Positions 5,090 to 58,645 of a stretch of 64,000 nt of DNA are shown one piece after another. Origin of the DNA: a phage; the sequence record PZ179882.1; one strand, 5' to 3'. Each line of letters begins with the position of its first letter. Positions within the stretch are counted from its first letter, which is position 1. Made by a program: the position numbers and the translations under genes. Under the pieces are notes generated by a model. The model searched no databases and was not told where the DNA came from. It worked only from the letters and a program-made list of their open reading frames with translations.

Positions 5090-5630
5090 ATAAAAAATCC
5101 AAACTAGGAGAATCGTCTACAACACTTTTCTTTTCAGCCCCCGGTGTTCTATAGGTTGATTCTTCGTAATGCGTCATTTTATCGTAGATGTCTTGAATAA
5201 AAGTTTCATCTACTAACGCAACCATATCGTCGTCACGACTGTCATAGACATTGTGAACGAAGTAACTGTATTTCTTTGCAACTTCCTTACGTTCTTTTTT
5301 AATACGTTGGACGAATGCATTAAAACAAGCTTGAGTTATATATGCATGCGGGTTTTTATATTTCGTTTCATCAAAATTATGAAGCCCCTTAATAGAAGCT
5401 TCTATACCATCTGCAATCATTTCTTGTTTCCAAGACTGGGTGTATCCTGAAAAGTTGAAACGTTTAGATAAGCCTTCTGCAATAAGCATAATGGCTAATC
5501 CGATGGTATCATTCTGACGAACTACTTTATTTGGGTCTTTATTATTTGCTAATTCTGTTTTCCAATCAATAATAGCTTGTAAAAGCTCTTTATTGTTTAC
5601 GTAATTATATTTAGGCTTAGTTTCTGACAT
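5073..5630 (-). CDS. 55: Late-transcription sigma factor gp55
   Basis: Protein [23 protein letters not shown]... matches T4 gp55; ATG at 5630 with AGAGGTGAAA RBS (track start at 5636 is an upstream GTG); 185 aa. Confidence 0.9.
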
Positions 5631-5708
5631 TTTCACCTCTTAGCTCAATTCATAGATCTATTATATCATAATATTTGAAGATCTATCTTAAAGCATAGAG
5701 GATATCAG

Positions 5709-5978
5709 TTATCTAAGTAAACAGTATGCTTGGAACACTTTCTCCATCATCTTTTTAAATTCATGAATATCTATGTAATGACTAGTTAAATCAGCATGAT
5801 ATAAAAAGTCTAAAAACTTTTCATGTGTGCTAACATATTCACTTTCATTTAATTCAGAAACATGGCTTTCCCAATATCCAACACCAGTCTTATTTGGGAA
5901 AAATGAAATTTTCATATATTGGTCAACATAGAAAATTCCATAATTTTCAATAGTAATAGAAATATTAATAAATTTCAT
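5709..5978 (-). CDS. Hypothetical protein
   Basis: ORF track 89 aa. Confidence 0.5.
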   Translation of the reverse strand: MKFINISITIENYGIFYVDQYMKISFFPNKTGVGYWESHVSELNESEYVSTHEKFLDFLYHADLTSHYIDIHEFKKMMEKVFQAYCLLR

Positions 5979-6190
5979 ACATTCATCAACTTAGCCGCTT
6001 CAAGAGCTGCATCTAGTGAATCAAATTGGTCAACGTATTCAATCAATTCGCCATAATTAGCGTATAACCACCATTGGCTAAATTCATACTCAAGGATGAA
6101 TCCATTTCCTTCAATTTGAGTTAAACCAATGCCATTTGTATTTACTTCATATCCAGCAAGACGCAAATCGTTAATAAGAGCTTCGTTCAT
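5975..6190 (-). CDS. Hypothetical protein
   Basis: ORF track 71 aa; start/stop overlap with neighbours. Confidence 0.5.
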   Translation of the reverse strand: MNEALINDLRLAGYEVNTNGIGLTQIEGNGFILEYEFSQWWLYANYGELIEYVDQFDSLDAALEAAKLMNV

Positions 6191-18480: not shown

Positions 18481-19200
18481 TTAGGATTCTTCTAAATGTC
18501 TTTTCTGAAAAGTTGATACCATACTACGATACGGTTCATTTGGATACCCGTGTTTTATAGCTTCCTTTGTAAATTTTCTCCATCCATATTTAGTTTCTTT
18601 CCAAAGCTCGAATAATTCATCTTCATATTGCCATATAGTTAAATGAGAACGCTTTGCAGCTTTAATTCCATTAATATGCTTTTCTTTTACTACAGGATTA
18701 CTTAGTTTCTTTTTAATAATATTACTAACTTTTCTAACAAAAACTGGGTCCTTATATCGTTGCGAAGTTTTTATTGAAGTGTTTAATTTAGCTTCCGGTG
18801 TGGATGTGACCTCTTTCATCTTTTTCTTCATATGCTGTATATGATTAGGATTTTTCCATAAATTTATAGAATGCTTTTTGCATTTTATCCTAGTTTCATC
18901 TGCAACCTTTCCTCCTTCACCTCCGTATGACAGGTTAACACAGTTTTTTCCATATTTCAATTTACCTGCCATGATATATAATATTTCAGCTTGTACCATT
19001 TTATCATAATTATCAAAAACTTCTAAAACCGTTTTTGTTAATATGTGGTCATTTGACACTTTTACACGTTCTATATAATTTCCACTACCAACATACGAAT
19101 CATTGATGTTATTAGTTATATGTCGACCATAATAGTATTTCTTAATACCTGTCTTTAAATTTAATATTTCAGTTTTATAGATAGTAAAATATTTTTTCAT
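18481..19200 (-). CDS. GIY-YIG homing endonuclease (Seg-like)
   Basis: 239 aa; N-terminal TIYKTEILN...KYYYG...YVGSGNYI GIY-YIG-like motifs; basic NUMOD-like C-terminus. Confidence 0.65.
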   Translation of the reverse strand: MKKYFTIYKTEILNLKTGIKKYYYGRHITNNINDSYVGSGNYIERVKVSNDHILTKTVLEVFDNYDKMVQAEILYIMAGKLKYGKNCVNLSYGGEGGKVADETRIKCKKHSINLWKNPNHIQHMKKKMKEVTSTPEAKLNTSIKTSQRYKDPVFVRKVSNIIKKKLSNPVVKEKHINGIKAAKRSHLTIWQYEDELFELWKETKYGWRKFTKEAIKHGYPNEPYRSMVSTFQKRHLEES

Positions 19201-20165
19201 TTTAATAATACCGTTTCAGCAATTTCTTCCCAACCGTTTTTGTCGGTCATAATAAAGTCAGCAAGATAAAGAGCAGTACGCAGTGAAACATTGCGTAAAC
19301 GATTAACATTAACTTTCATCCATGATAATGCTTTATAAGTTTCTTCATCAGAAAGACCGCGCTTTTGCATCATGTCGGTTGAAAGAATAACATCTTCAAC
19401 CCTGACCATAATTTCTTCATTAGTGTGAACACCCAAATCTAAATAAACTGAGCGGGACACTAATGCTTGTAAATGTGGAGCAAGTTTAGTACCACGGTCT
19501 AATTCGCGGTCAATATCAACGTTTGTGATAAAAACAATCGTTCCTTTAAATTCAAACTCACGCTCAATGCCTTTTTCTTCTAAGTAAGAAGATGCAGTGC
19601 TCCAGCAGACTTTACGGGTCTCTCCAGTGTCCAGAGCAGCTTTTAGAAGATTAAGAATGTCCATATCAGAGAAAACATCCACATCATCAATCAAAAGGAC
19701 AGAATTCTCTTCACGATTATTCCAAAGCTGCTCATAAAGACCAATACCAGAGATTTTACCATTAATGCTTTTATATTCAATGTATCCATTATCATTTGCT
19801 TTATTTAAAGCTTTATCTAAAGAATACGTTTTACCAATACCTGCTGCGCCAGAGATAATTAATGAACGAATATTTCCATTAATAATACCATTCGTCATCA
19901 TTCCCATAACATTAAATCTTTTATTAATGCGGGTTTTCATATCTTCATATGATTCTTTAACTTCTTCAACTTTTACACCATCATATGAAATATCTGATTT
20001 GTAAACCCAAACACCGCGACGTTTACCGTCAATTTCAACAAAAACTTTACCATCTCCTTGTGCATCTACCGGAGCATTATCTGGGAACCATTCGCCTAAG
20101 AGCTCAAAAGTTCCAGAGATTTCTTTACCGAAGTAGATACCCTTATTGATAGTTACAGTTTTCAT
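19197..20165 (-). CDS. P-loop NTPase
   Basis: Walker A GAAGIGKT and Walker B LLIDDVD; ATG at 20165 with GGAG RBS (track start 20183 is GTG); 322 aa. Confidence 0.65.
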   Translation of the reverse strand: MKTVTINKGIYFGKEISGTFELLGEWFPDNAPVDAQGDGKVFVEIDGKRRGVWVYKSDISYDGVKVEEVKESYEDMKTRINKRFNVMGMMTNGIINGNIRSLIISGAAGIGKTYSLDKALNKANDNGYIEYKSINGKISGIGLYEQLWNNREENSVLLIDDVDVFSDMDILNLLKAALDTGETRKVCWSTASSYLEEKGIEREFEFKGTIVFITNVDIDRELDRGTKLAPHLQALVSRSVYLDLGVHTNEEIMVRVEDVILSTDMMQKRGLSDEETYKALSWMKVNVNRLRNVSLRTALYLADFIMTDKNGWEEIAETVLLK

Positions 20166-20201
20166 TTTATTCTCCAATTTCACATTTGTTTTGATAGGGT
20201 A

Positions 20202-20231
20202 ATAGTATCACACTACTACCCTGCTGTAAAC
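20202..20231 (-). promoter_or_regulatory. T4 early-type promoter upstream of the P-loop NTPase
   Basis: GTTTAC 20231..20226, TACTAT 20207..20202. Confidence 0.55.
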
Positions 20232-20234
20232 AAT

Positions 20235-20498
20235 TTATTTTAATGTTTGCCAAATTTTTACTGCTTCGCGACGAGATACTTCTACAGCTCCAAGTTCTAC
20301 AGCTTTTTGGCGTCGCCGAGCGTGTAAGTCATAATGTTTAATGCGTTTATCTTGAAACCAAGAACGTTTCATTCCTATTGCTTCTGCCATTTCGTGAAGC
20401 TCTTCAATATCTCCATCAGTGAACATATGACAATTTTTAGTTGGATGACCGCGAAGTTTCCATCCATGATTCATTAAAACATCTACGTAAACTGTCAT
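20235..20498 (-). CDS. Hypothetical small protein (MTVYVD...HGW motif)
   Basis: ORF track 87 aa. Confidence 0.5.
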   Translation of the reverse strand: MTVYVDVLMNHGWKLRGHPTKNCHMFTDGDIEELHEMAEAIGMKRSWFQDKRIKHYDLHARRRQKAVELGAVEVSRREAVKIWQTLK

Positions 20499-20644
20499 TG
20501 ATTCTTCTCCAAATAAGTTTCGATAATTTTCTGGGCAAGATAAACCGCGTTATCTTCAGTTGCGTCTTCTAAGAAACTTTCAAAACACTCTGAAATTTCT
20601 TCTGTATCAATCAACTTTTTTACTTCAATTGGTGTAATTTTCAT
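20495..20644 (-). CDS. Hypothetical small protein
   Basis: ORF track 20495..20713; ATG at 20644 lies downstream of promoter 20682..20711; 49 aa. Confidence 0.4.
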   Translation of the reverse strand: MKITPIEVKKLIDTEEISECFESFLEDATEDNAVYLAQKIIETYLEKNQ

Positions 20645-20681
20645 TTTGTTTTTCCGTTTAAGTGTTTGTTTTGATAGTTGT

Positions 20682-20711
20682 ATAGTACCATAAAGCTTTA
20701 TGCTTGTAAAC
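20682..20711 (-). promoter_or_regulatory. T4 early-type promoter just downstream of terminator 20735..20760
   Basis: GTTTAC 20711..20706, TACTAT 20687..20682. Confidence 0.55.
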
Positions 20712-20734
20712 AATTTTGTGAAAAATTTTTGAAA

Positions 20735-20760
20735 TAAAAAAGGGAGCCCGAAGGCTCCCT
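20735..20760 (-). terminator. Rho-independent terminator downstream of the nucleotidyltransferase gene
   Basis: GGGAGCC-TTCG-GGCTCCC hairpin followed by a six-U run on minus strand. Confidence 0.7.
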
Positions 20761-20761
20761 A

Positions 20762-21775
20762 TCATTTATAATAACTTCGGTGGTTTTCAAGATAAACCCT
20801 CTCAAGGAAGTCATCCCAAAAACCCATGTCTACTTTTTGCTGCATACCGTTCTTAGAAGCTTCAGTAGATGCTGCTTCTACTTGATCGACCACATCTTCC
20901 AAAAACTCTTGAACCGTTTTAAATGGATGTTTACCCAACTTCACGTCGAGAATAAATGGAGCATCTTGGAGTGGATAAACCAAGTCACCAGTTTTGTAAA
21001 TTTCCAATAGTTGGAGTCCACCACGGCAAGCATGACTCAGAGCTTTCCAGTCAATACCTTCATTGGCTTCGGCCTTACGAGCACGTTCACCGTATTCAGC
21101 ATCTAATTTGTTCAGTGACTGCTTAAGCTCAATAAGAGAAAGCGTTGTCTGATATTTACGACCCAACACTGTGTAGAACGTCTGTGGGCCTGTTTTCTCA
21201 TGATTATGGAACACCCATTCACAGAATTCGTTTTCTGGAAGACGATGCTTAATATCTTCAACTTTAGTACGACGCTGCTTAATAGAACCATCTTCTTGGT
21301 AATCAACCCATTTCTCAGGGATTTGATTAACTACTTTCAATACATCACGTAATGCAGCCAAACGAGAACCCTTAACGCCGTATTTAGAAGCTTGCTTACG
21401 GACATATCCTAAATAGGATTTCATGTTAGTCGTATAAAAACGAGAACGGTTGTCTTGAATAAACTTCCACACATCAGGCAAATCAGATTTAACCACTAAC
21501 TCAGGTGGAGTGTGAAGCATATCTAACGCTACAGTTTCACCATCTGCTGCTAATTTAAAGAAATATTTAAGACTATACAATTCGTGGTCAATATCATCTT
21601 TAGTGTTTTTAGATGATGTGTTGTTAGTGTTTTTACTCATATGCTCTTTAACATTTCCGATAAGAATATCACGAGCAGGAGGAACAAAGATTTCTTTAAA
21701 ATCTACATCAGATTCTGGGGTAGAAGTTCCATAAAGATGACTACCAAAATAGCTTTTCATTACTGTTTTCATCAT
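20762..21775 (-). CDS. Polymerase-beta-superfamily nucleotidyltransferase
   Basis: 337 aa; N-terminal GSHLYGTSTPESDVDF fits hG[GS]x9-13Dh[DE]h; ATGA overlap with upstream membrane ORF; strong terminator directly downstream. Confidence 0.6.
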   Translation of the reverse strand: MMKTVMKSYFGSHLYGTSTPESDVDFKEIFVPPARDILIGNVKEHMSKNTNNTSSKNTKDDIDHELYSLKYFFKLAADGETVALDMLHTPPELVVKSDLPDVWKFIQDNRSRFYTTNMKSYLGYVRKQASKYGVKGSRLAALRDVLKVVNQIPEKWVDYQEDGSIKQRRTKVEDIKHRLPENEFCEWVFHNHEKTGPQTFYTVLGRKYQTTLSLIELKQSLNKLDAEYGERARKAEANEGIDWKALSHACRGGLQLLEIYKTGDLVYPLQDAPFILDVKLGKHPFKTVQEFLEDVVDQVEAASTEASKNGMQQKVDMGFWDDFLERVYLENHRSYYK

Positions 21776-22233
21776 TCAGCCTTATATTCAATAACAGGAC
21801 ATACTTTAGCTTTACGAGCTTTTAAAAATTCAACGATAACCGATTTCTTGGGTTGAATAGGAGGTAAACCTTTATACGCCCTATCAATATTTTCTACGTG
21901 TAAAGCATAATCCTTTTTCCATTTATAATCTTTATATTTTTCACGCAGTTGTGCAGGAATAACAAATGAACCGATAATAAGTAAAACAACCAAAAGTGCA
22001 AGTATAAATGCCGATGGAAGAAGAGTCCATAAACTACCAAAAATAAGCCATTTCTGTATGATTTCTGCACAGATAATAGTTAGACCTGCGAGTATAGTAC
22101 ATCCGAAAAAAGAAACGAAAAATGTAGGGATAACAATAGACCAAAAGTATGCACACAGTGTCTTAGGTCGTTTCCATTCGTCGTTAAACAGTTTGAATAA
22201 TTTATAGTGCCAAGAGTTTTCATTAATAATCAT
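21772..22233 (-). CDS. Membrane protein (about three TM segments)
   Basis: 153 aa; long hydrophobic stretches; translationally coupled to the nucleotidyltransferase. Confidence 0.55.
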   Translation of the reverse strand: MIINENSWHYKLFKLFNDEWKRPKTLCAYFWSIVIPTFFVSFFGCTILAGLTIICAEIIQKWLIFGSLWTLLPSAFILALLVVLLIIGSFVIPAQLREKYKDYKWKKDYALHVENIDRAYKGLPPIQPKKSVIVEFLKARKAKVCPVIEYKAE

Positions 22234-22235
22234 AA

Positions 22236-22757
22236 TTATCCTTTCATTGAAGGTGTAACAGTTGTTAAATACTTAATCATAGCTTCAGCTTCTGATTTTG
22301 ATAATGAAATTTCTTCATTGTTTTGACGAATAGAAATAAAATCCGGATGACGGTCACCACCAGCTTTTAAAACACACATATAAGTATCAGTTTCATCTTC
22401 AATATCTGAAATGATTGAAGCAGTTCCACATGAATGTGGTTTTTGATAAATCAATACAGCTTTTCTTCCACCGTTTGACTGTTCATAAACTTTTAACACA
22501 TCAAACAAATCGCTTCTTTTATCAATAGCTAAGATGTTGTTTTCATCTTCAATATTAAATCCTTCGGATACTTCATAAAGTGTCACCCATAAATCACCAA
22601 TATCAATAACAGCGTTCACTTTTCCATGACTTTCAAGAGCATTACAAATTTTCTTAATTTCATCATAACTCATTTTAATAATATCATCTCCTTGAATAAG
22701 GAAGATGTCATTTTTAAATTCAACACGAATTAAACCACTTCCACTTGAAATAAACAT
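22236..22757 (-). CDS. Hypothetical protein, paralog of 22764..23297
   Basis: 173 aa; C-terminus EAEAMIKYLTTVTPSM resembles DEAIALKTYLDSVIPTM of neighbour. Confidence 0.55.
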   Translation of the reverse strand: MFISSGSGLIRVEFKNDIFLIQGDDIIKMSYDEIKKICNALESHGKVNAVIDIGDLWVTLYEVSEGFNIEDENNILAIDKRSDLFDVLKVYEQSNGGRKAVLIYQKPHSCGTASIISDIEDETDTYMCVLKAGGDRHPDFISIRQNNEEISLSKSEAEAMIKYLTTVTPSMKG

Positions 22758-22763
22758 ATTTCC

Positions 22764-23297
22764 TCACTTTGAAATCATAGTTGGAATGACAGAATCGAGA
22801 TAAGTCTTTAGCGCAATAGCTTCGTCTTTGGTAAATGTGACAATATACGATCGAAAATCATCAATTTGACGAATAGTTAAGACATCACCATCTTCATAGC
22901 ATTTTGATACGTTTAAAACAGTTTCATCATTCTGATTGCAAGCGTTAGTAATAATAGCATTGCAATTTTTGAGCCATTTTAAACTATGTTTTCTTTCATT
23001 AGAATAATAAAAATATTTAATCTTATCTATAAAACTATCCCAATGGATAACTGATAAACACATTGACTCACTTTTAATATTAAATCCTGGGCATGAAGAA
23101 TAAAAATGAATTTTGTGCTCATCATTGATGCTTACTATTTTATCAGTATAAGGATATTCAATTTGGGTTAAATGAATGATTTCACTAGGCGTAAAATATA
23201 GCATATCGTCTTCTTGTGTCAAACGATACATATTATTTACTTTTTCTATAGCTAATTCACCAAAAAGCGGACTAACTTCTAATACTAATCGTTTCAT
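22764..23297 (-). CDS. Hypothetical protein, paralog of 22236..22757
   Basis: ORF track 22764..23321 starts at GTG; ATG at 23297; 177 aa. Confidence 0.55.
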   Translation of the reverse strand: MKRLVLEVSPLFGELAIEKVNNMYRLTQEDDMLYFTPSEIIHLTQIEYPYTDKIVSINDEHKIHFYSSCPGFNIKSESMCLSVIHWDSFIDKIKYFYYSNERKHSLKWLKNCNAIITNACNQNDETVLNVSKCYEDGDVLTIRQIDDFRSYIVTFTKDEAIALKTYLDSVIPTMISK

Positions 23298-23445
23298 ATT
23301 GATTCTCTTCGACTCACCCACAATTACATACTCCTTTGAATAATATCAATAATGTTGTTCACCAGATTATAAGTAAACATTGGATAATTATATTGAATCA
23401 TCACATACACAACAAACAAAACTTTCATTCTCTTCTCCTTGGCAG

Positions 23446-23477
23446 TTGGCAAGATTACTATATCATAATCTTGCCAA
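23446..23477. repeat. Inverted repeat TTGGCAAGATTA(8 nt)TAATCTTGCCAA
   Basis: 12-bp perfect arms spanning the spacer/-10 region of promoter 23457..23486. Confidence 0.5.
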
Positions 23478-23486
23478 CTTGTAAAC
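23457..23486 (-). promoter_or_regulatory. T4 early-type promoter heading the four-gene cassette 23297 to 20762
   Basis: GTTTAC 23486..23481, TATAGT 23462..23457; overlaps a 12-bp-arm inverted repeat. Confidence 0.5.
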
Positions 23487-37274: not shown

Positions 37275-37350
37275 TGGTCGAGGCAGTAGGGATCGAACCT
37301 ACGACCTAGGACTTAGAAGGTCCTTGCTCTTCCTTCTGAGCTATGCCCCG
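37275..37350 (-). tRNA. tRNA-Arg (anticodon UCU)
   Basis: 76 nt cloverleaf folded by eye; loop CUUCUAA; T-loop GTTCGATCC; encoded CCA. Confidence 0.85.
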
Positions 37351-37354
37351 TAAT

Positions 37355-37429
37355 TGGGTGACCGATGGGAGTCGAACCCATGACTACGAGAATCACAATC
37401 TCGAGTTCTACCAACTGAACTACGGCCAC
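37355..37429 (-). tRNA. tRNA-His (anticodon GUG)
   Basis: 75 nt cloverleaf; loop UUGUGAU; T-loop GGTTCGACTCC; encoded CCA. Confidence 0.8.
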
Positions 37430-37543
37430 ATTAATACCTACTCCAACAATCAAGATGTCTTCACACGAAATTAAGAGAAGAGTGATCAGTTCAACCCCTA
37501 TAATCGCGTCAAGTAGATATTAATGTGACAGTTGTCACAAATT

Positions 37544-37618
37544 TGGCGGACGTGATAGGATTCGAACCTATAACCAATCGCTTAACAGGCGATCGCTCTG
37601 CCATTGAGCTACACATCC
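37544..37618 (-). tRNA. tRNA-Asn (anticodon GUU)
   Basis: 75 nt cloverleaf; loop CUGUUAA; encoded CCA. Confidence 0.8.
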
Positions 37619-37622
37619 AAAT

Positions 37623-37709
37623 TGGTGGGGAGTGATGGAGTCGAACCACCCGAGTCGCAATGACAATGGATTTACAGTCCACACCGCTACCTCTACGGGA
37701 TAACTCCCC
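37623..37709 (-). tRNA. tRNA-Tyr (anticodon GUA)
   Basis: 87 nt with long variable arm; loop CUGUAAA; encoded CCA. Confidence 0.75.
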
Positions 37710-37721
37710 TAATTCGTAATT

Positions 37722-37796
37722 TGGTGGCCCTGGGTGGAATTGAACCACCATCTGGCGATTATGAGTCGCTTGCTTGAACCTTCCAGCTACAGGGCC
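37722..37796 (-). tRNA. tRNA with CAU anticodon (Met, or Ile if C34 is lysidine-modified)
   Basis: 75 nt cloverleaf; loop CUCAUAA; one mismatch in D and anticodon stems. Confidence 0.75.
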
Positions 37797-37797
37797 T

Positions 37798-37873
37798 TGG
37801 TGCTGATTGACGGAATCGAACCGCCGACCTTCTCATTACAAGTGAGTTGCTCTACCTACTGAGCTAAATCAGC
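37798..37873 (-). tRNA. tRNA-Thr (anticodon UGU)
   Basis: 76 nt cloverleaf; loop CUUGUAA. Confidence 0.85.
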
Positions 37874-37878
37874 AAAAC

Positions 37879-37968
37879 TGGCGGAGGCGATAGGATTTGA
37901 ACCTATGAGTCGCCGGAGCGACTGCCGGTTTTCAAGACCGGTGCATTAAACCACTCTGCCACGCCTCC
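37879..37968 (-). tRNA. tRNA-Ser (anticodon UGA)
   Basis: 90 nt with long variable arm; loop CUUGAAA. Confidence 0.8.
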
Positions 37969-37970
37969 AG

Positions 37971-38044
37971 TCTCCGTGGCAGGATTTGAACCTACGACAT
38001 TCTGCTCCCAAAGCAGACGCTCTACCAAACTGAGCTACACGAAG
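37971..38044 (-). tRNA. tRNA-Pro (anticodon UGG), CCA not encoded
   Basis: 74 nt; loop UUUGGGA; 3-prime end lacks CCA. Confidence 0.8.
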
Positions 38045-38054
38045 TAAATTAAAT

Positions 38055-38128
<74 letters not shown>

Positions 38129-38133
38129 AAATT

Positions 38134-38220
38134 TGGTGCGAGAAGTGGGACTCGAACCCACAAGGAAATCATTCCGCAGCATTTTAAGTGCTGTGCCTTT
38201 ACCAATTTGACCATTCTCGC
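38134..38220 (-). tRNA. tRNA-Leu (anticodon UAA)
   Basis: 87 nt with long variable arm; loop CUUAAAA. Confidence 0.85.
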
Positions 38221-54634: not shown

Positions 54635-56439
54635 TGAAACAAAATATTAATATCGGTAATGTTGTTGATGATGGTACCGGTGACTACCTGCGTAAAGGTG
54701 GTATAAAAATAAATGAAAACTTTGATGAACTTTATTATGAACTTGGTGATGGAGATGTTCCATATTCAGCCGGTGCCTGGAAAACTTATAATGCTTCATC
54801 TGGACAAACACTAACGGCAGAATGGGGAAAATCATATGCCATTAATACTTCGTCTGGAAGAGTAACTCTACAACTTCCTAAAGGAACTGTTAATGATTAC
54901 AACAAGGTAATTAGAGCTAGAGACGTATTCGCTACATGGAACATCAATCCAGTTACTTTAGTAGCTGCTTCCGGAGATACAATTAAAGGGTCGTCATCAT
55001 CGGTTGAAATTAATGTTCAATTTAGTGATTTAGAGTTAGTTTATTGCGCTCCAGGACGTTGGGAATATGTCAAAAACAAACAAATTGACAAAATTGTTAG
55101 TTCAGATATTAGTAACGTAGCTCGCAAAGAATTTTTAGTTGAAGTTCAAGGACAAACTGACTTTTTAGATGTTTTCAATGGAACTAGTTATAATGTTAAT
55201 AACATAAGAGTGAAGCATCGTGGTAACGAATTATATTACGGTGATGTATTTAGTGAAAATAGCGACTTTGGCTCTCCAGGGGAAAATGAAGGCGAATTAG
55301 TTCCTCTTGATGGATTTAATATTCGATTAAGACAGCCATGTAATATTGGTGACACCGTTCAAATTGAAACATTTATGGATGGTGTATCACAATGGAGAAG
55401 TTCATATACAAGACGCCAAATAAAAGTACTAGATTCAAAACTAACATCAAAGACTTCATTAGAAGGAAGTATTTACGTTACTGATTTATCAACGATGAAA
55501 TCAATTCCATTTTCCGCTTTTGGATTAATTCCTGGTGAACCTATTAATCCTAATTCTCTTGAGGTTCGTTTTAATGGAATTTTACAGCAGCAGGCTGGAA
55601 CAGCTGGATATCCTCTGTTTTTGTGTGAAGGCGCTAATTCAGATACGCAAGAAGGATGTATATCTCTTGGCGGCGAATGGAAAGAATCAAACACGGATTA
55701 TTCTATAGAATATGAAGACGGAAAACCTATCAGTCTTTTATTTGATAGAAAATTTGAATCCGGCGACATTATCGTTATAACATGGTTCAATAACGATTTA
55801 GGAACTCTTTTAGAAAAAGATGACATTATTGAATTAACAGATGACCGTTATGTTAGCAAAGGATCATCTACTGAAGTTACTGGTGATGTGGCCTTAACAG
55901 ATTTTGATAAAATCGGCTGGCCAAATGTTGAAAAAGTTGATTCTTATACTAGAACGTATAATTCAATATCATCTATTTTCGATAGCATTTATCCTGTAGG
56001 TTCAATTTATGAAAATGCTATAAATCCAAATAATCCGGTGACTTATATGGGATTTGGTTCATGGAAATTATTTGGCAAAGGACAAGTTTTAGTAGGATGG
56101 AATGATGATGTTACGGATCCAAACTTTGCTTTAAACAATAATGATTTAGATTCTAGCGGAAATCCTTCACATACTGCTGGTGGAACAGTTGGAACAACAT
56201 CAGTAACGCTTGAAAACGCAAATCTTCCTGCAACTAAAACCGACGAAAGAGTTTTAATTGAAGACGAAAATGGATCGGTTATTATTGGAGGTTGCCAATA
56301 TGACCCAGATGAAACTGGTCCTATATATACAAAATATCGTGAAGACTATGCAACAACAAACTCTTCACATACTCCTCCTGCTAATATTAGTAATATTCAA
56401 CCGTCTATTACTGTATACCGTTGGATAAGGATTGCATAA
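54634..56439 (+). CDS. 10: Baseplate wedge protein gp10
   Basis: 601 aa; matches T4 gp10. Confidence 0.93.
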
Positions 56440-57098
56440 TGAGTTTACTTAATAATAAAGCGGGAGTTATTTCCCGCTTAGCAGATTTTCTTGGTTTTAG
56501 AACTAAGAAAAATGATATTTCGGTTATGAATAATCAGCCAGTAGGCGCTGTAACAATTTCACAAATAGCAAAAGGTTTTTATGACCCAAATGTAGAATCT
56601 GCTATTAATGATGTTAGAAATATGGCAGAGCAACAAGTTGGAGCTGTATTAGTTAATATAAGCGGCGTATCTCCTACTGGCGTGCAGCAAACAGACTATT
56701 GGTCATTTGAAGGAACTGTTACTGATACTTCAGCCAAACCAGGTGACCCAGTTATTGTTAACATGTTTGGTATTCCAGTTAAAGCTACTAACGGAATGAC
56801 TTCAATTGAATTTACCAGTGCCGTTAGAATAGCTCTACAGGAAATGGTTGTAAAATTTATTGCAATTGATTCATTTGAAGACCATCCTACCATAGGAAAT
56901 AAAATACAAGTTAAGTATTTAGATAACCAAGAACATATCTTAGAACAATACTCTGATAAAGGAATTACTTTCAAACAGGAAATAATTTCTCCTTCTAAAC
57001 CTGGGTATGGAACTTGGCAATTATTAGGTGCGCAAACTGTTACGCTAGATAGTCACACACAACCTACAGTATTTTATTATTTTGAGAGAGTAGCATGA
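56439..57098 (+). CDS. 11: Baseplate wedge protein gp11
   Basis: ORF track 56421..57098 starts at TTG; ATG at 56439 overlaps gp10 stop (TAATG); 219 aa. Confidence 0.92.
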
Positions 57099-58645
57099 GT
57101 AACAATACATATCAGCACGTATCAAATGAATCAAAATATGTTAAATTCGATCCTACTGGATCGAATTTTCCTGGCACTGTTACGACAGTACAGTCTGCAT
57201 TATCAAAAATAAGTAATATCGGCGTAAATGGTATTCCTGATGCAACTATGGAAGTTAAAGGAATAGCAATGATCGCGTCAGAGCAAGAAGTTTTAGATGG
57301 AACTAATAATTCTAAAATCGTTACACCAGCTACATTAGCAACAAGATTATTATATCCAAATGCTACTGAAACTAAATATGGTTTAACGCGTTATTCAACA
57401 AATGAAGAAACATTAGAAGGCTCAGATAATAATTCATCAATAACGCCGCAAAAACTGAAATACCACACTGACGATGTGTTCCAAAATAGATATTCGTCTG
57501 AGTCATCAAACGGGGTTATTAAAATATCATCTACACCTGCAGCTTTAGCTGGCGTTGATGATACTACGGCAATGACTCCATTAAAAACACAAAAACTTGC
57601 AATAAAATTAATTTCACAAATAGCTCCTTCCGAAGATACTGCATCAGAATCTGTGAGAGGTGTAGTTCAATTATCTACTGTTGCGCAAACTCGTCAAGGA
57701 ACTCTCCGCGAAGGATATGCAATTTCTCCGTATACCTTTATGAATTCTGTTGCAACACAAGAATATAAGGGTGTTATACGTTTAGGAACACAATCGGAAA
57801 TTAACAGTAATTTAGGAGATGTTGCAGTAACAGGTGAAACACTAAATGGTCGAGGAGCTACTGGTTCTATGCGTGGAGTAGTTAAATTAACGACGCAAGC
57901 CGGTATTGCCCCTGAAGGTGATAGTTCTGGAGCATTAGCATGGAACGCAGATGTAATTAATACTCGTGGTGGACAAACTATTAACGGTTCTTTAAATTTA
58001 GACCATCTTACAGCAAACGGAATTTGGTCGCGCGGCGGAATGTGGAAAAATGGCGATCAACCTGTTGCCACTGAAAGATATGCGTCCGAAAGGATTCCAG
58101 TTGGAACTATTATGATGTTTGCAGGTGATTCAGCACCTCCAGGTTGGATTATGTGCCACGGCGGAACCGTGTCAGGAGATCAATATCCTGATTATAGAAA
58201 CGTAGTTGGAGGAAGATTTGGTGGGGATTGGAATAATCCAGGGATTCCTGATATGCGAGGTCTTTTCGTCAGAGGAGCTGGCACGGGCGGTCATATTTTA
58301 AATCAACGTGGACAAGATGGCTATGGAAAGGATAGACTGGGCGTAGGATGTGACGGAATGCATGTTGGTGGTGTTCAGGCACAACAAATGTCATACCATA
58401 AACATGCTGGTGGTTGGGGAGAATACCAAAGACATGAAGCTCCATTTGGCGCGTCAGTTTATCAAGGATATCTTGGAACTAGAAAATATTCCGACTGGGA
58501 TAATGCTTCATACTTCACTAATGATGGATTTGAATTGGGTGGACCGAGAGATGCCCTTGGTACACTTAATCGTGAAGGATTAATTGGTTATGAAACTAGA
58601 CCATGGAATATATCATTAAACTATATTATTAAAGTTCATTACTAA
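57095..58645 (+). CDS. 12: Short tail fibre gp12
   Basis: 516 aa; matches T4 gp12 including C-terminal IIKVHY. Confidence 0.92.

Follow-up and report, generated by a model that had tools for sequence, protein, structure and literature searches.

The 64,000-nucleotide (nt) stretch of phage DNA analysed here (sequence record PZ179882.1; "the window" below means this whole stretch) carries, between a predicted early promoter and an intrinsic terminator at positions 20731 to 23485, a block of minus-strand genes whose last member encodes a 337-amino-acid (aa) protein. This protein is a nucleotidyltransferase (NTase) of the DNA polymerase beta (Pol-beta) superfamily; it belongs to the RlaP family and is the ortholog of phage T4 NrdC.11. 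The interval that holds it is nothing unusual: it comes from the early, non-essential mobD-nrdC region of a T4-like phage (Tequatrovirus) and is an ordinary T4-type early-gene block, already known and annotated. Our analysis makes it likely, with a probability of roughly 0.6, that NrdC.11 serves within this block in RNA 3'-end repair of the RlaP type and that its neighbours are not obligatory partners. A preliminary description of the same DNA had suggested that the NTase and an adjacent membrane protein form a signalling or abortive-infection module, or that the NTase has a CCA-adding or repair role; repair now stands near the best current reading, which concerns RNA 3' ends, while CCA addition does not stand.

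The NrdC.11 ortholog (20762-21775, minus strand) is 98.8% identical in aa sequence to one T4 record and 98.2% identical to that of NC_000866, and the 98-99% identity to T4 NrdC.11 (NP_049709; T4p095) extends over the full length. The T4 gene also lies upstream of nrdC.10 and downstream of mobD.x genes, and its terminator-bearing 3' flank is common to T4 and the window. The preliminary description had left room for a T4 nrdC.x counterpart as a caveat, and at 98% aa identity the protein is indeed nrdC.11. It matches phrog_388 ("nucleotidyltransferase", E 9e-137) and, at 44.3 bits against a family cutoff of 23 (E 2.4e-11), passes the threshold of Pfam RlaP (PF10127). Precomputed PF10127 annotation is present on all of the 120 NrdC.11 homologs listed, and a Pnkp-linked bacterial ortholog also matches this model. 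The family is large: at 50% identity it has 3429 clusters for a cutoff of E < 1e-3 and still 826 for E < 1e-30, and the best 150 matches listed are mostly near-full-length.

Conservation was measured in a set of 71 diverse homologs of 34-55% identity to NrdC.11. Fifteen positions are invariant in them: G11, S12, G16, S22, D23, D25, N57, D63, Y132, R231, K244, H248, R251, P268 and K279. The hG[GS] motif of the superfamily is present, with G11-S12 invariant in 71/71 homologs, and so is the [DE]x[DE] pair with its third carboxylate, D23 and D25 lying at the start of strand 24-31 and D63 on strand 62-68. The N-terminal active-site signature that had been read from the sequence is thus borne out by invariant G11, S12, D23, D25 and D63. 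The AlphaFold2 (AF2) model built from the 71-homolog alignment has a mean predicted local distance difference test score (pLDDT) of 94.3 and a predicted template modelling score (pTM) of 0.81. It shows the alpha/beta fold of NTases in a core at residues 1-113, followed by a long helix (119-151), a beta-rich segment (about 153-210) and a helical domain (214-336). Three invariant aspartates are likewise a feature of the RlaP proteins of Pseudomonas (PfRlaP and PaRlaP), and the predicted order of an N-terminal NTase domain and a C-terminal helical domain may correspond to theirs, in which the last helix packs back on the NTase domain. A Foldseek search of the model against the PDB gave weak matches at superfamily level, and all meaningful ones were Pol-beta NTases with a helical domain, namely kanamycin nucleotidyltransferase (KNTase; the top match, E 6e-3, probability 0.99), 3c18, HalB, LinB and AAD(9). 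The Pfam match, the model and these fold matches agree with the earlier assignment to the Pol-beta type, and the structure search that had been proposed as its check returns an NTase fold, led by KNTase, with no CD-NTase or CCA-adding fold. Predicted viral structures show this fold widely, both in phages and in giant viruses. When the PDB was searched by sequence, neither NrdC.11 alone nor the 71-sequence profile found anything meaningful, the profile matching no chain at E <= 10, and neither PADLOC nor NCBIfam matched any protein of the block. A CD-NTase/CBASS identity was rejected, since no CD-NTase model or fold matched NrdC.11 in Pfam, PADLOC or Foldseek. An MNT/HEPN toxin-antitoxin pair was also considered and rejected.

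An NTase domain in nrdC.11 was recorded in 2006 by Nolan et al. (PMC1524935), and phage RlaPs have been predicted to restore nucleotides lost from broken RNA ends prior to ligation (PMC7824862). A December 2025 preprint, which places T4 NrdC.11 in cluster 5 of the RlaP family, shows that two Pseudomonas RlaPs add 1-2 nucleoside monophosphates (NMP) to RNA 3'-OH ends with a preference for Mn2+, that PfRlaP favours the break end of a cleaved-tRNA mimic over its acceptor 3' end, and that these enzymes raise the aminoacylation of a repaired tRNA that had been short of one nucleotide (PMC12776372). We looked at the genes that accompany NrdC.11-like proteins in cells by scanning one genome per prokaryotic species; neighbours were clustered, checked with Pfam and counted by tblastn. 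Full-length NrdC.11-like genes (32-54% identity) are present in bacterial and archaeal genomes, and of the 80 such loci 16 have Pnkp, Hen1, RtcB or TROVE/Ro60 within 5 kb. Among these are three loci with contiguous Hen1-Pnkp-NrdC.11-like operons and another with a TROVE-RtcB-...-NrdC.11-like-Hen1 island. In these 16 loci cellular NrdC.11 orthologs are linked to RNA ligase and repair genes, as other RlaP genes are, and such neighbourhoods connect RNA break repair with the NrdC.11 clade itself and not only with the Pfam family at large. Five of the invariant residues, R231, K244, H248, R251 and K279, are basic and lie in the helical domain.

From family membership and the gene neighbourhoods of orthologs we infer the following mechanism. 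NrdC.11 would add 1-2 nucleotides, without a template, to the 3'-OH of a broken RNA, one likely substrate being a tRNA 5' half that a host anticodon nuclease of RloC type has shortened at its end; the phage's healing and sealing enzymes Pnk and Rnl1, encoded elsewhere in the genome, could then rebuild a usable tRNA. The y05I paralogs, the MobD.2-like open reading frame (ORF) and the membrane protein encoded by the same block would be lineage-restricted accessory genes, which may share a transcript with the NTase gene and need not be its partners.

Several points weigh against this RNA-repair role. The RlaP biochemistry comes from a preprint whose authors speak of a "potential" repair role, and the enzymes studied belong to cluster 1a, a sub-cluster other than cluster 5 of the NrdC.11 clade. 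The Pfam match covers the NTase core only (residues 7-135, positions 23-142 of a 249-position profile), whereas NrdC.11 has 337 residues, and its extra beta-rich segment at about 153-210 lies outside the matched part of the model. Unlike the association seen for the RlaP family, phage nrdC.11 does not lie beside RNA ligase or kinase genes: RtcB is nearby in only 1 of 78 viral loci (below), and Pnk, Rnl1 and Rnl2 were not found in the window, T4 encoding them elsewhere.

Whether the neighbours of NrdC.11 belong with it functionally can be judged from the T4 locus and from the wider distribution of these genes. Comparison by blastn shows that window positions 21777-22738, a polymorphic segment that holds the second of two tandem y05I paralogs (paralog B) and the membrane gene, have no T4 counterpart, and that an 808-bp mobD cassette at T4 56450-57257 has no counterpart in the window; the flanks of 21777-22738 align to T4 at 94-96% identity with clean breakpoints. 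T4 mobD is a free-standing HNH homing endonuclease locus (PMC2988022) situated between mobD.1 and nrdC.11. Paralog B and the membrane gene thus occupy the exact site of the mobD homing endonuclease, and the window carries a mobD-less allele. The gene directly upstream of nrdC.11 is accordingly mobD in T4, overlapping nrdC.11 by 17 nt, and in the window the membrane gene, preceded by the second y05I paralog and overlapping nrdC.11 by ATGA. A tblastn search of the complete T4 genome (E <= 0.1) found no homolog of the membrane protein or of paralog B, though NrdC.11 is kept there at 98%. T4 remains viable when the stretch from nrdC.11 to mobD.3 is deleted (PMC9825161). A 79%-identical MobD also lies between the membrane gene and nrdC.11 at 5240-6004 of a Dhaka-like contig (L010), so that MobD is directly 5' of nrdC.11 in both T4 and this contig; the cleavage target of MobD may lie at the junction 5' of nrdC.11.

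Co-occurrence of the block's genes had been set beforehand as a check on the cassette, and the genes do not travel together. There are 1519 phage records with NrdC.11, as against 852 with the membrane gene and 449 with paralog B. We surveyed 78 IMG/VR viral loci with an NrdC.11 homolog. The full gene set is present in 2/78, and another 10/78 have one y05I gene with the membrane gene directly upstream of the NrdC.11 homolog, a position that the membrane gene thus holds in 12/78. It lies further upstream, with other ORFs between, in 29/78, one of them being L010 with its intervening MobD, and in 1/78 it is elsewhere, downstream of the NrdC.11 homolog; 36/78 have no membrane-gene homolog, among them a 96%-identical Tequatrovirus locus. 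The preliminary description had read the ATGA junction between the membrane gene and the NTase gene as translational coupling. The overlap is real (21775-21772), but it is no sign of partnership, as a four-base, ATGA-type overlap at the start of NrdC.11 occurs with any upstream gene, not only with the membrane gene but also with MobD and with unrelated ORFs 59-184 aa long; it is a packing habit of nrdC.11 and not evidence of a specific partnership. In distant phages the neighbours of NrdC.11 homologs are helicases, PolA, NadV and NatV, with no recurring partner. NAD-salvage genes (an NMNAT-Nudix fusion and nicotinamide phosphoribosyltransferase) lie a few kb off in some distant T4-like phages, upstream in two loci and downstream in two others, and this proximity probably reflects a shared plastic region rather than a functional link.

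These results bear directly on the suggestion that the NTase and the membrane protein constitute a two-component signalling or abortive-infection module, which in its sharpest form would be a phage counterpart or antagonist of Hailong. Hailong is an operon of transmembrane HalA and the NTase HalB, in which oligo-dA made by HalB keeps the HalA channel closed (PMC13434031), and HalB counted as the best structural match of NrdC.11. The membrane gene lies directly upstream of nrdC.11 with an ATGA overlap, the same adjacency recurs in the 12/78 viral loci, which span three genera, and in the 29 further loci a membrane-gene homolog is within about 2.5 kb upstream. We nevertheless consider such a module very improbable, and the T4 case already largely refutes it: T4 keeps NrdC.11 without a membrane-gene homolog anywhere in its genome, the phage membrane protein being dispensable there, and the 96%-identical Tequatrovirus locus lacks one as well. 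In this sequence-level test the 153-aa protein, the candidate for an obligate HalA-like operon partner, is missing from T4 and from 36/78 viral loci. The membrane gene is moreover shortened or split in several Tequatroviruses, the ATGA-type overlap is indifferent to the upstream gene, and bacterial orthologs of NrdC.11 lie in RNA-repair operons, not beside membrane proteins. The likeness of NrdC.11 to HalB (PDB 9dbh; 217 aa, against 337 for NrdC.11) is at superfamily level. In a profile search (E <= 10) NrdC.11 resembled neither HalB nor any other PDB chain in sequence; its family has variable C-terminal tails, with no conserved counterpart of the C-terminal priming tyrosine of HalB; and the product of HalB is DNA, whereas RNA is what RlaP enzymes extend. 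For the membrane protein no solved chain was matched beyond one chance-level hit, and PADLOC gave no match, though Hailong may post-date that library. With the membrane gene missing from T4, adjacency in 12/78 loci and no CD-NTase or defence model matching, a membrane-coupled signalling module is not supported, and neither is a functional cassette of the four genes that the preliminary description had grouped together.

It is also unlikely, in our view, that NrdC.11 nucleotidylylates a protein or a small molecule, for example to inactivate a host toxin or defence protein, in the manner of aminoglycoside and lincosamide NTases, GlnE, DrrA or MntA. Kanamycin nucleotidyltransferase/ANT(4') (1kny) has the same plan as NrdC.11, an NTase core and a helical bundle; the two are 8% identical, with a template modelling score (TM-score) of 0.33-0.41, and the 1kny enzyme acts on aminoglycosides; for NrdC.11, both the gene neighbourhoods of its orthologs and the basic residues that are invariant in its helical domain suggest RNA. 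DNA and protein (E. coli proteins) were not substrates of the Pseudomonas RlaPs (PMC12776372). A further reading would make NrdC.11 an enzyme that adds CCA to, or completes the 3' ends of, phage tRNAs without an encoded CCA. The tRNA-Pro of the window (38044-37970) is such a tRNA, since CT and not CCA follows it, as the preliminary description had said; that description had called it nearby, but the tRNA cluster is about 16 kb from nrdC.11. In favour of this reading, RlaPs show little nucleoside triphosphate (NTP) specificity when they add 1-2 nt to RNA 3'-OH ends, and in total RNA they label species of the size of full-length tRNA (PMC12776372). Against this, NrdC.11 has no CCA-enzyme domain (Pfam, E <= 1; the RlaP core alone matches), no CCA-adding enzyme is among its fold matches, and the head, neck, body and tail of PolyA_pol-type enzymes are not seen. 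PfRlaP, as noted above, prefers an anticodon-break end to the acceptor 3' end (PMC12776372), and the orthologs of NrdC.11 are linked to the break-repair genes Pnkp/Hen1 and RtcB, in bacterial operons. There is also an older consideration. Deutscher, Foulds and McClain reportedly found in 1974 that T4 tRNAs without CCA depend on the host cca enzyme; a CCA role for NrdC.11 is therefore disfavoured, because T4 would then not need host cca. Altogether we hold such a role to be quite unlikely. The tRNA cluster itself (37275-38220) comprises 10 genes, for Arg, His, Asn, Tyr, Met, Thr, Ser, Pro, Gly and Leu. T4 has only 8, for Arg, Ile, Thr, Ser, Pro, Gly, Leu and Gln, and there segB separates Arg from Ile; the window therefore carries a tRNA set other than that of T4.

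A 3.2-kb region that includes the block is 99.6% identical in nucleotide sequence to Escherichia phage ECO07P4, and 679 phage records match this region, nearly all of them Tequatrovirus; the window is thus from a Tequatrovirus. The genes of the block are 90-100% identical to counterparts in hundreds of sequenced Tequatroviruses. Judged by how T4 and a near-identical RefSeq phage are annotated, the block sits between rI/rI.-1/mobD.5-mobD.2 and nrdC.10, and the order rI, rI.-1, mobD.x, nrdC.10 is identical to that of T4. The ORF list, the signal scan and the sequence together give five tightly packed minus-strand genes between promoter and terminator. The four packed minus-strand genes of the preliminary description are there as stated, and a fifth, a 34-aa mobD.2 homolog, had been missed. 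The last three junctions are a gap of 6 nt, a gap of 2 nt and the ATGA overlap.

An early promoter and a strong terminator had been said to bracket these genes, and both signals were found. The predicted promoter (23485-23457, minus strand), of the sigma-70, T4-early type, was identified by a consensus scan; it has a GTTTACA -35 element, which is the typical T4 early form, a 17-nt spacer and the extended -10 element TGATATAGT, and as TTTACA-17-TATAGT with an extended -10 TG it matches 10/12 consensus positions. It takes up the 60 nt that separate the stop codon of an upstream 57-aa ORF (23489) from the next ATG (23428). Because promoter-like matches as a class are not enriched (30 in the region, against 23.8 +/- 4.7 in shuffles), this plausible call is based on form and position and not on statistics. 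The best sigma-70 match in the region (TTGACA-16-TATATT with TG, 11/12) is at 23195-23222, inside the 5' part of the gene for paralog A, and could be an internal promoter or chance. The intrinsic terminator (20731-20760, minus strand) consists of a hairpin at 20760-20741, with a GC-rich 8-bp stem (6 GC pairs) and a UUCG loop, followed by the T-run TTTTTTATTT. The hairpin begins one base past the NrdC.11 stop codon; with a folding energy of -17.7 kcal/mol (z = -4.3) it is more stable than any of 200 shuffles. It lies within sequence shared with T4 (window 20671-21776 corresponds to T4 55344-56449).

The first gene of the block (23324-23428, minus strand) encodes the 34-aa MobD.2-like protein (phrog_3515, E 3.8e-22), whose T4 counterpart is annotated; an AAGGAG ribosome-binding site lies 8 nt 5' of its ATG. 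It is followed by the minus-strand genes for paralog A (22764-23297, 177 aa, or 185 aa from a GTG at 23321; phrog_1502) and paralog B (22236-22757, 173 aa). T4 MobD.1 carries the Pfam domain pair T4_y05I_N (PF24449) and T4_y05I_C (PF24448), and both proteins have the same pair (E 3.6e-39 and 1.4e-20 in paralog A, 1e-34 and 1.6e-23 in paralog B) and so belong to this y05I/MobD.1 family. Paralog A, at 86% aa identity, is the MobD.1 ortholog. The two had been described as paralogs with related C-termini; they are indeed paralogs, but their likeness is not limited to the C-termini, as they align over their full length (27% identity over 176 columns, E 1e-9). Two y05I copies are present in the window phage, as against one in T4 and in most other genera. 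The family is confined to phages, and paralog B, which has no T4 homolog genome-wide (tblastn, E <= 0.1), is found essentially only in Tequatrovirus, nearly all of its 449 records being at least 92% identical to it. A database protein, P0314, is a chimera of the N-terminal two-thirds of paralog A and the C-terminal third of paralog B, which indicates recombination between the tandem paralogs. A PDB sequence search with paralog B gave chance-level matches only. Pfam labels y05I a "putative transcription factor". An alignment of 20 sequences gave an AF2 model of paralog A with a pLDDT of 53, too poor for a fold search, and the literature yielded nothing functional on y05I, mobD.1 or mobD.2. In other genera, ORFs of 170-184 aa lie between the membrane gene and nrdC.11; the idea that these are diverged y05I genes is unsupported, one representative having no Pfam match.

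The 153-aa membrane protein (21772-22233, minus strand; phrog_944 "membrane protein", E 1.5e-49) has, by hydropathy, a single hydrophobic block at residues 25-98 and a basic, lysine-rich C-terminal tail of cytoplasmic type (isoelectric point 9.4). About three transmembrane helices had been proposed for it; the membrane block stands, but the exact number of helices does not, 2-4 being possible. It has no Pfam domain, its homologs occur only in T4-like phages, and apart from one chance-level match no PDB chain was found at E <= 10. Its gene is shortened to 135 aa in T2 and to 112 aa in vB_EcoM_CE1, and is in two pieces in TadeuszReichstein, which is consistent with the decay of a dispensable gene.

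Downstream of the terminator, window positions 20178-20670 form a second insert without T4 counterpart by blastn, 493 bp in length and with two ORFs, one for an 87-aa DUF4031 protein (20235-20498) and one of 49-72 aa (20495-20644/20713), preceded by an early-type promoter at 20710-20682. Neither ORF has a homolog in the complete T4 genome (tblastn, E <= 0.1). In three viral contigs these ORFs are 94-96% identical in aa sequence to those of the window, and the NrdC.11 and NrdC.10 proteins of the same contigs are only 68-74% identical to the window's, which suggests that the insert is a small cassette recently exchanged between genera. The next gene of the region, at 19197-20183, encodes the 328-aa NrdC.10 ortholog, which has a weak AAA+/clamp-loader-like ATPase signature and an early-type promoter of its own at 20230-20202.

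Recognition of the NTase dates from 2006 and its assignment to the RlaP RNA-repair family from 2016, and the 2025 preprint on RlaP biochemistry names it; the discovery value of the present analysis is small. What the context analysis adds is independent support for a repair role, through the NrdC.11-clade genes found within bacterial Hen1-Pnkp and RtcB operons, and it removes the membrane protein from the proposed mechanism. If NrdC.11 does restore the nucleotides removed by RloC-type nucleases, it would be a third enzyme for the classical tRNA-repair pathway of T4 Pnk and Rnl1, and such restoration would explain how T4-like phages could escape "smart" ribotoxins.

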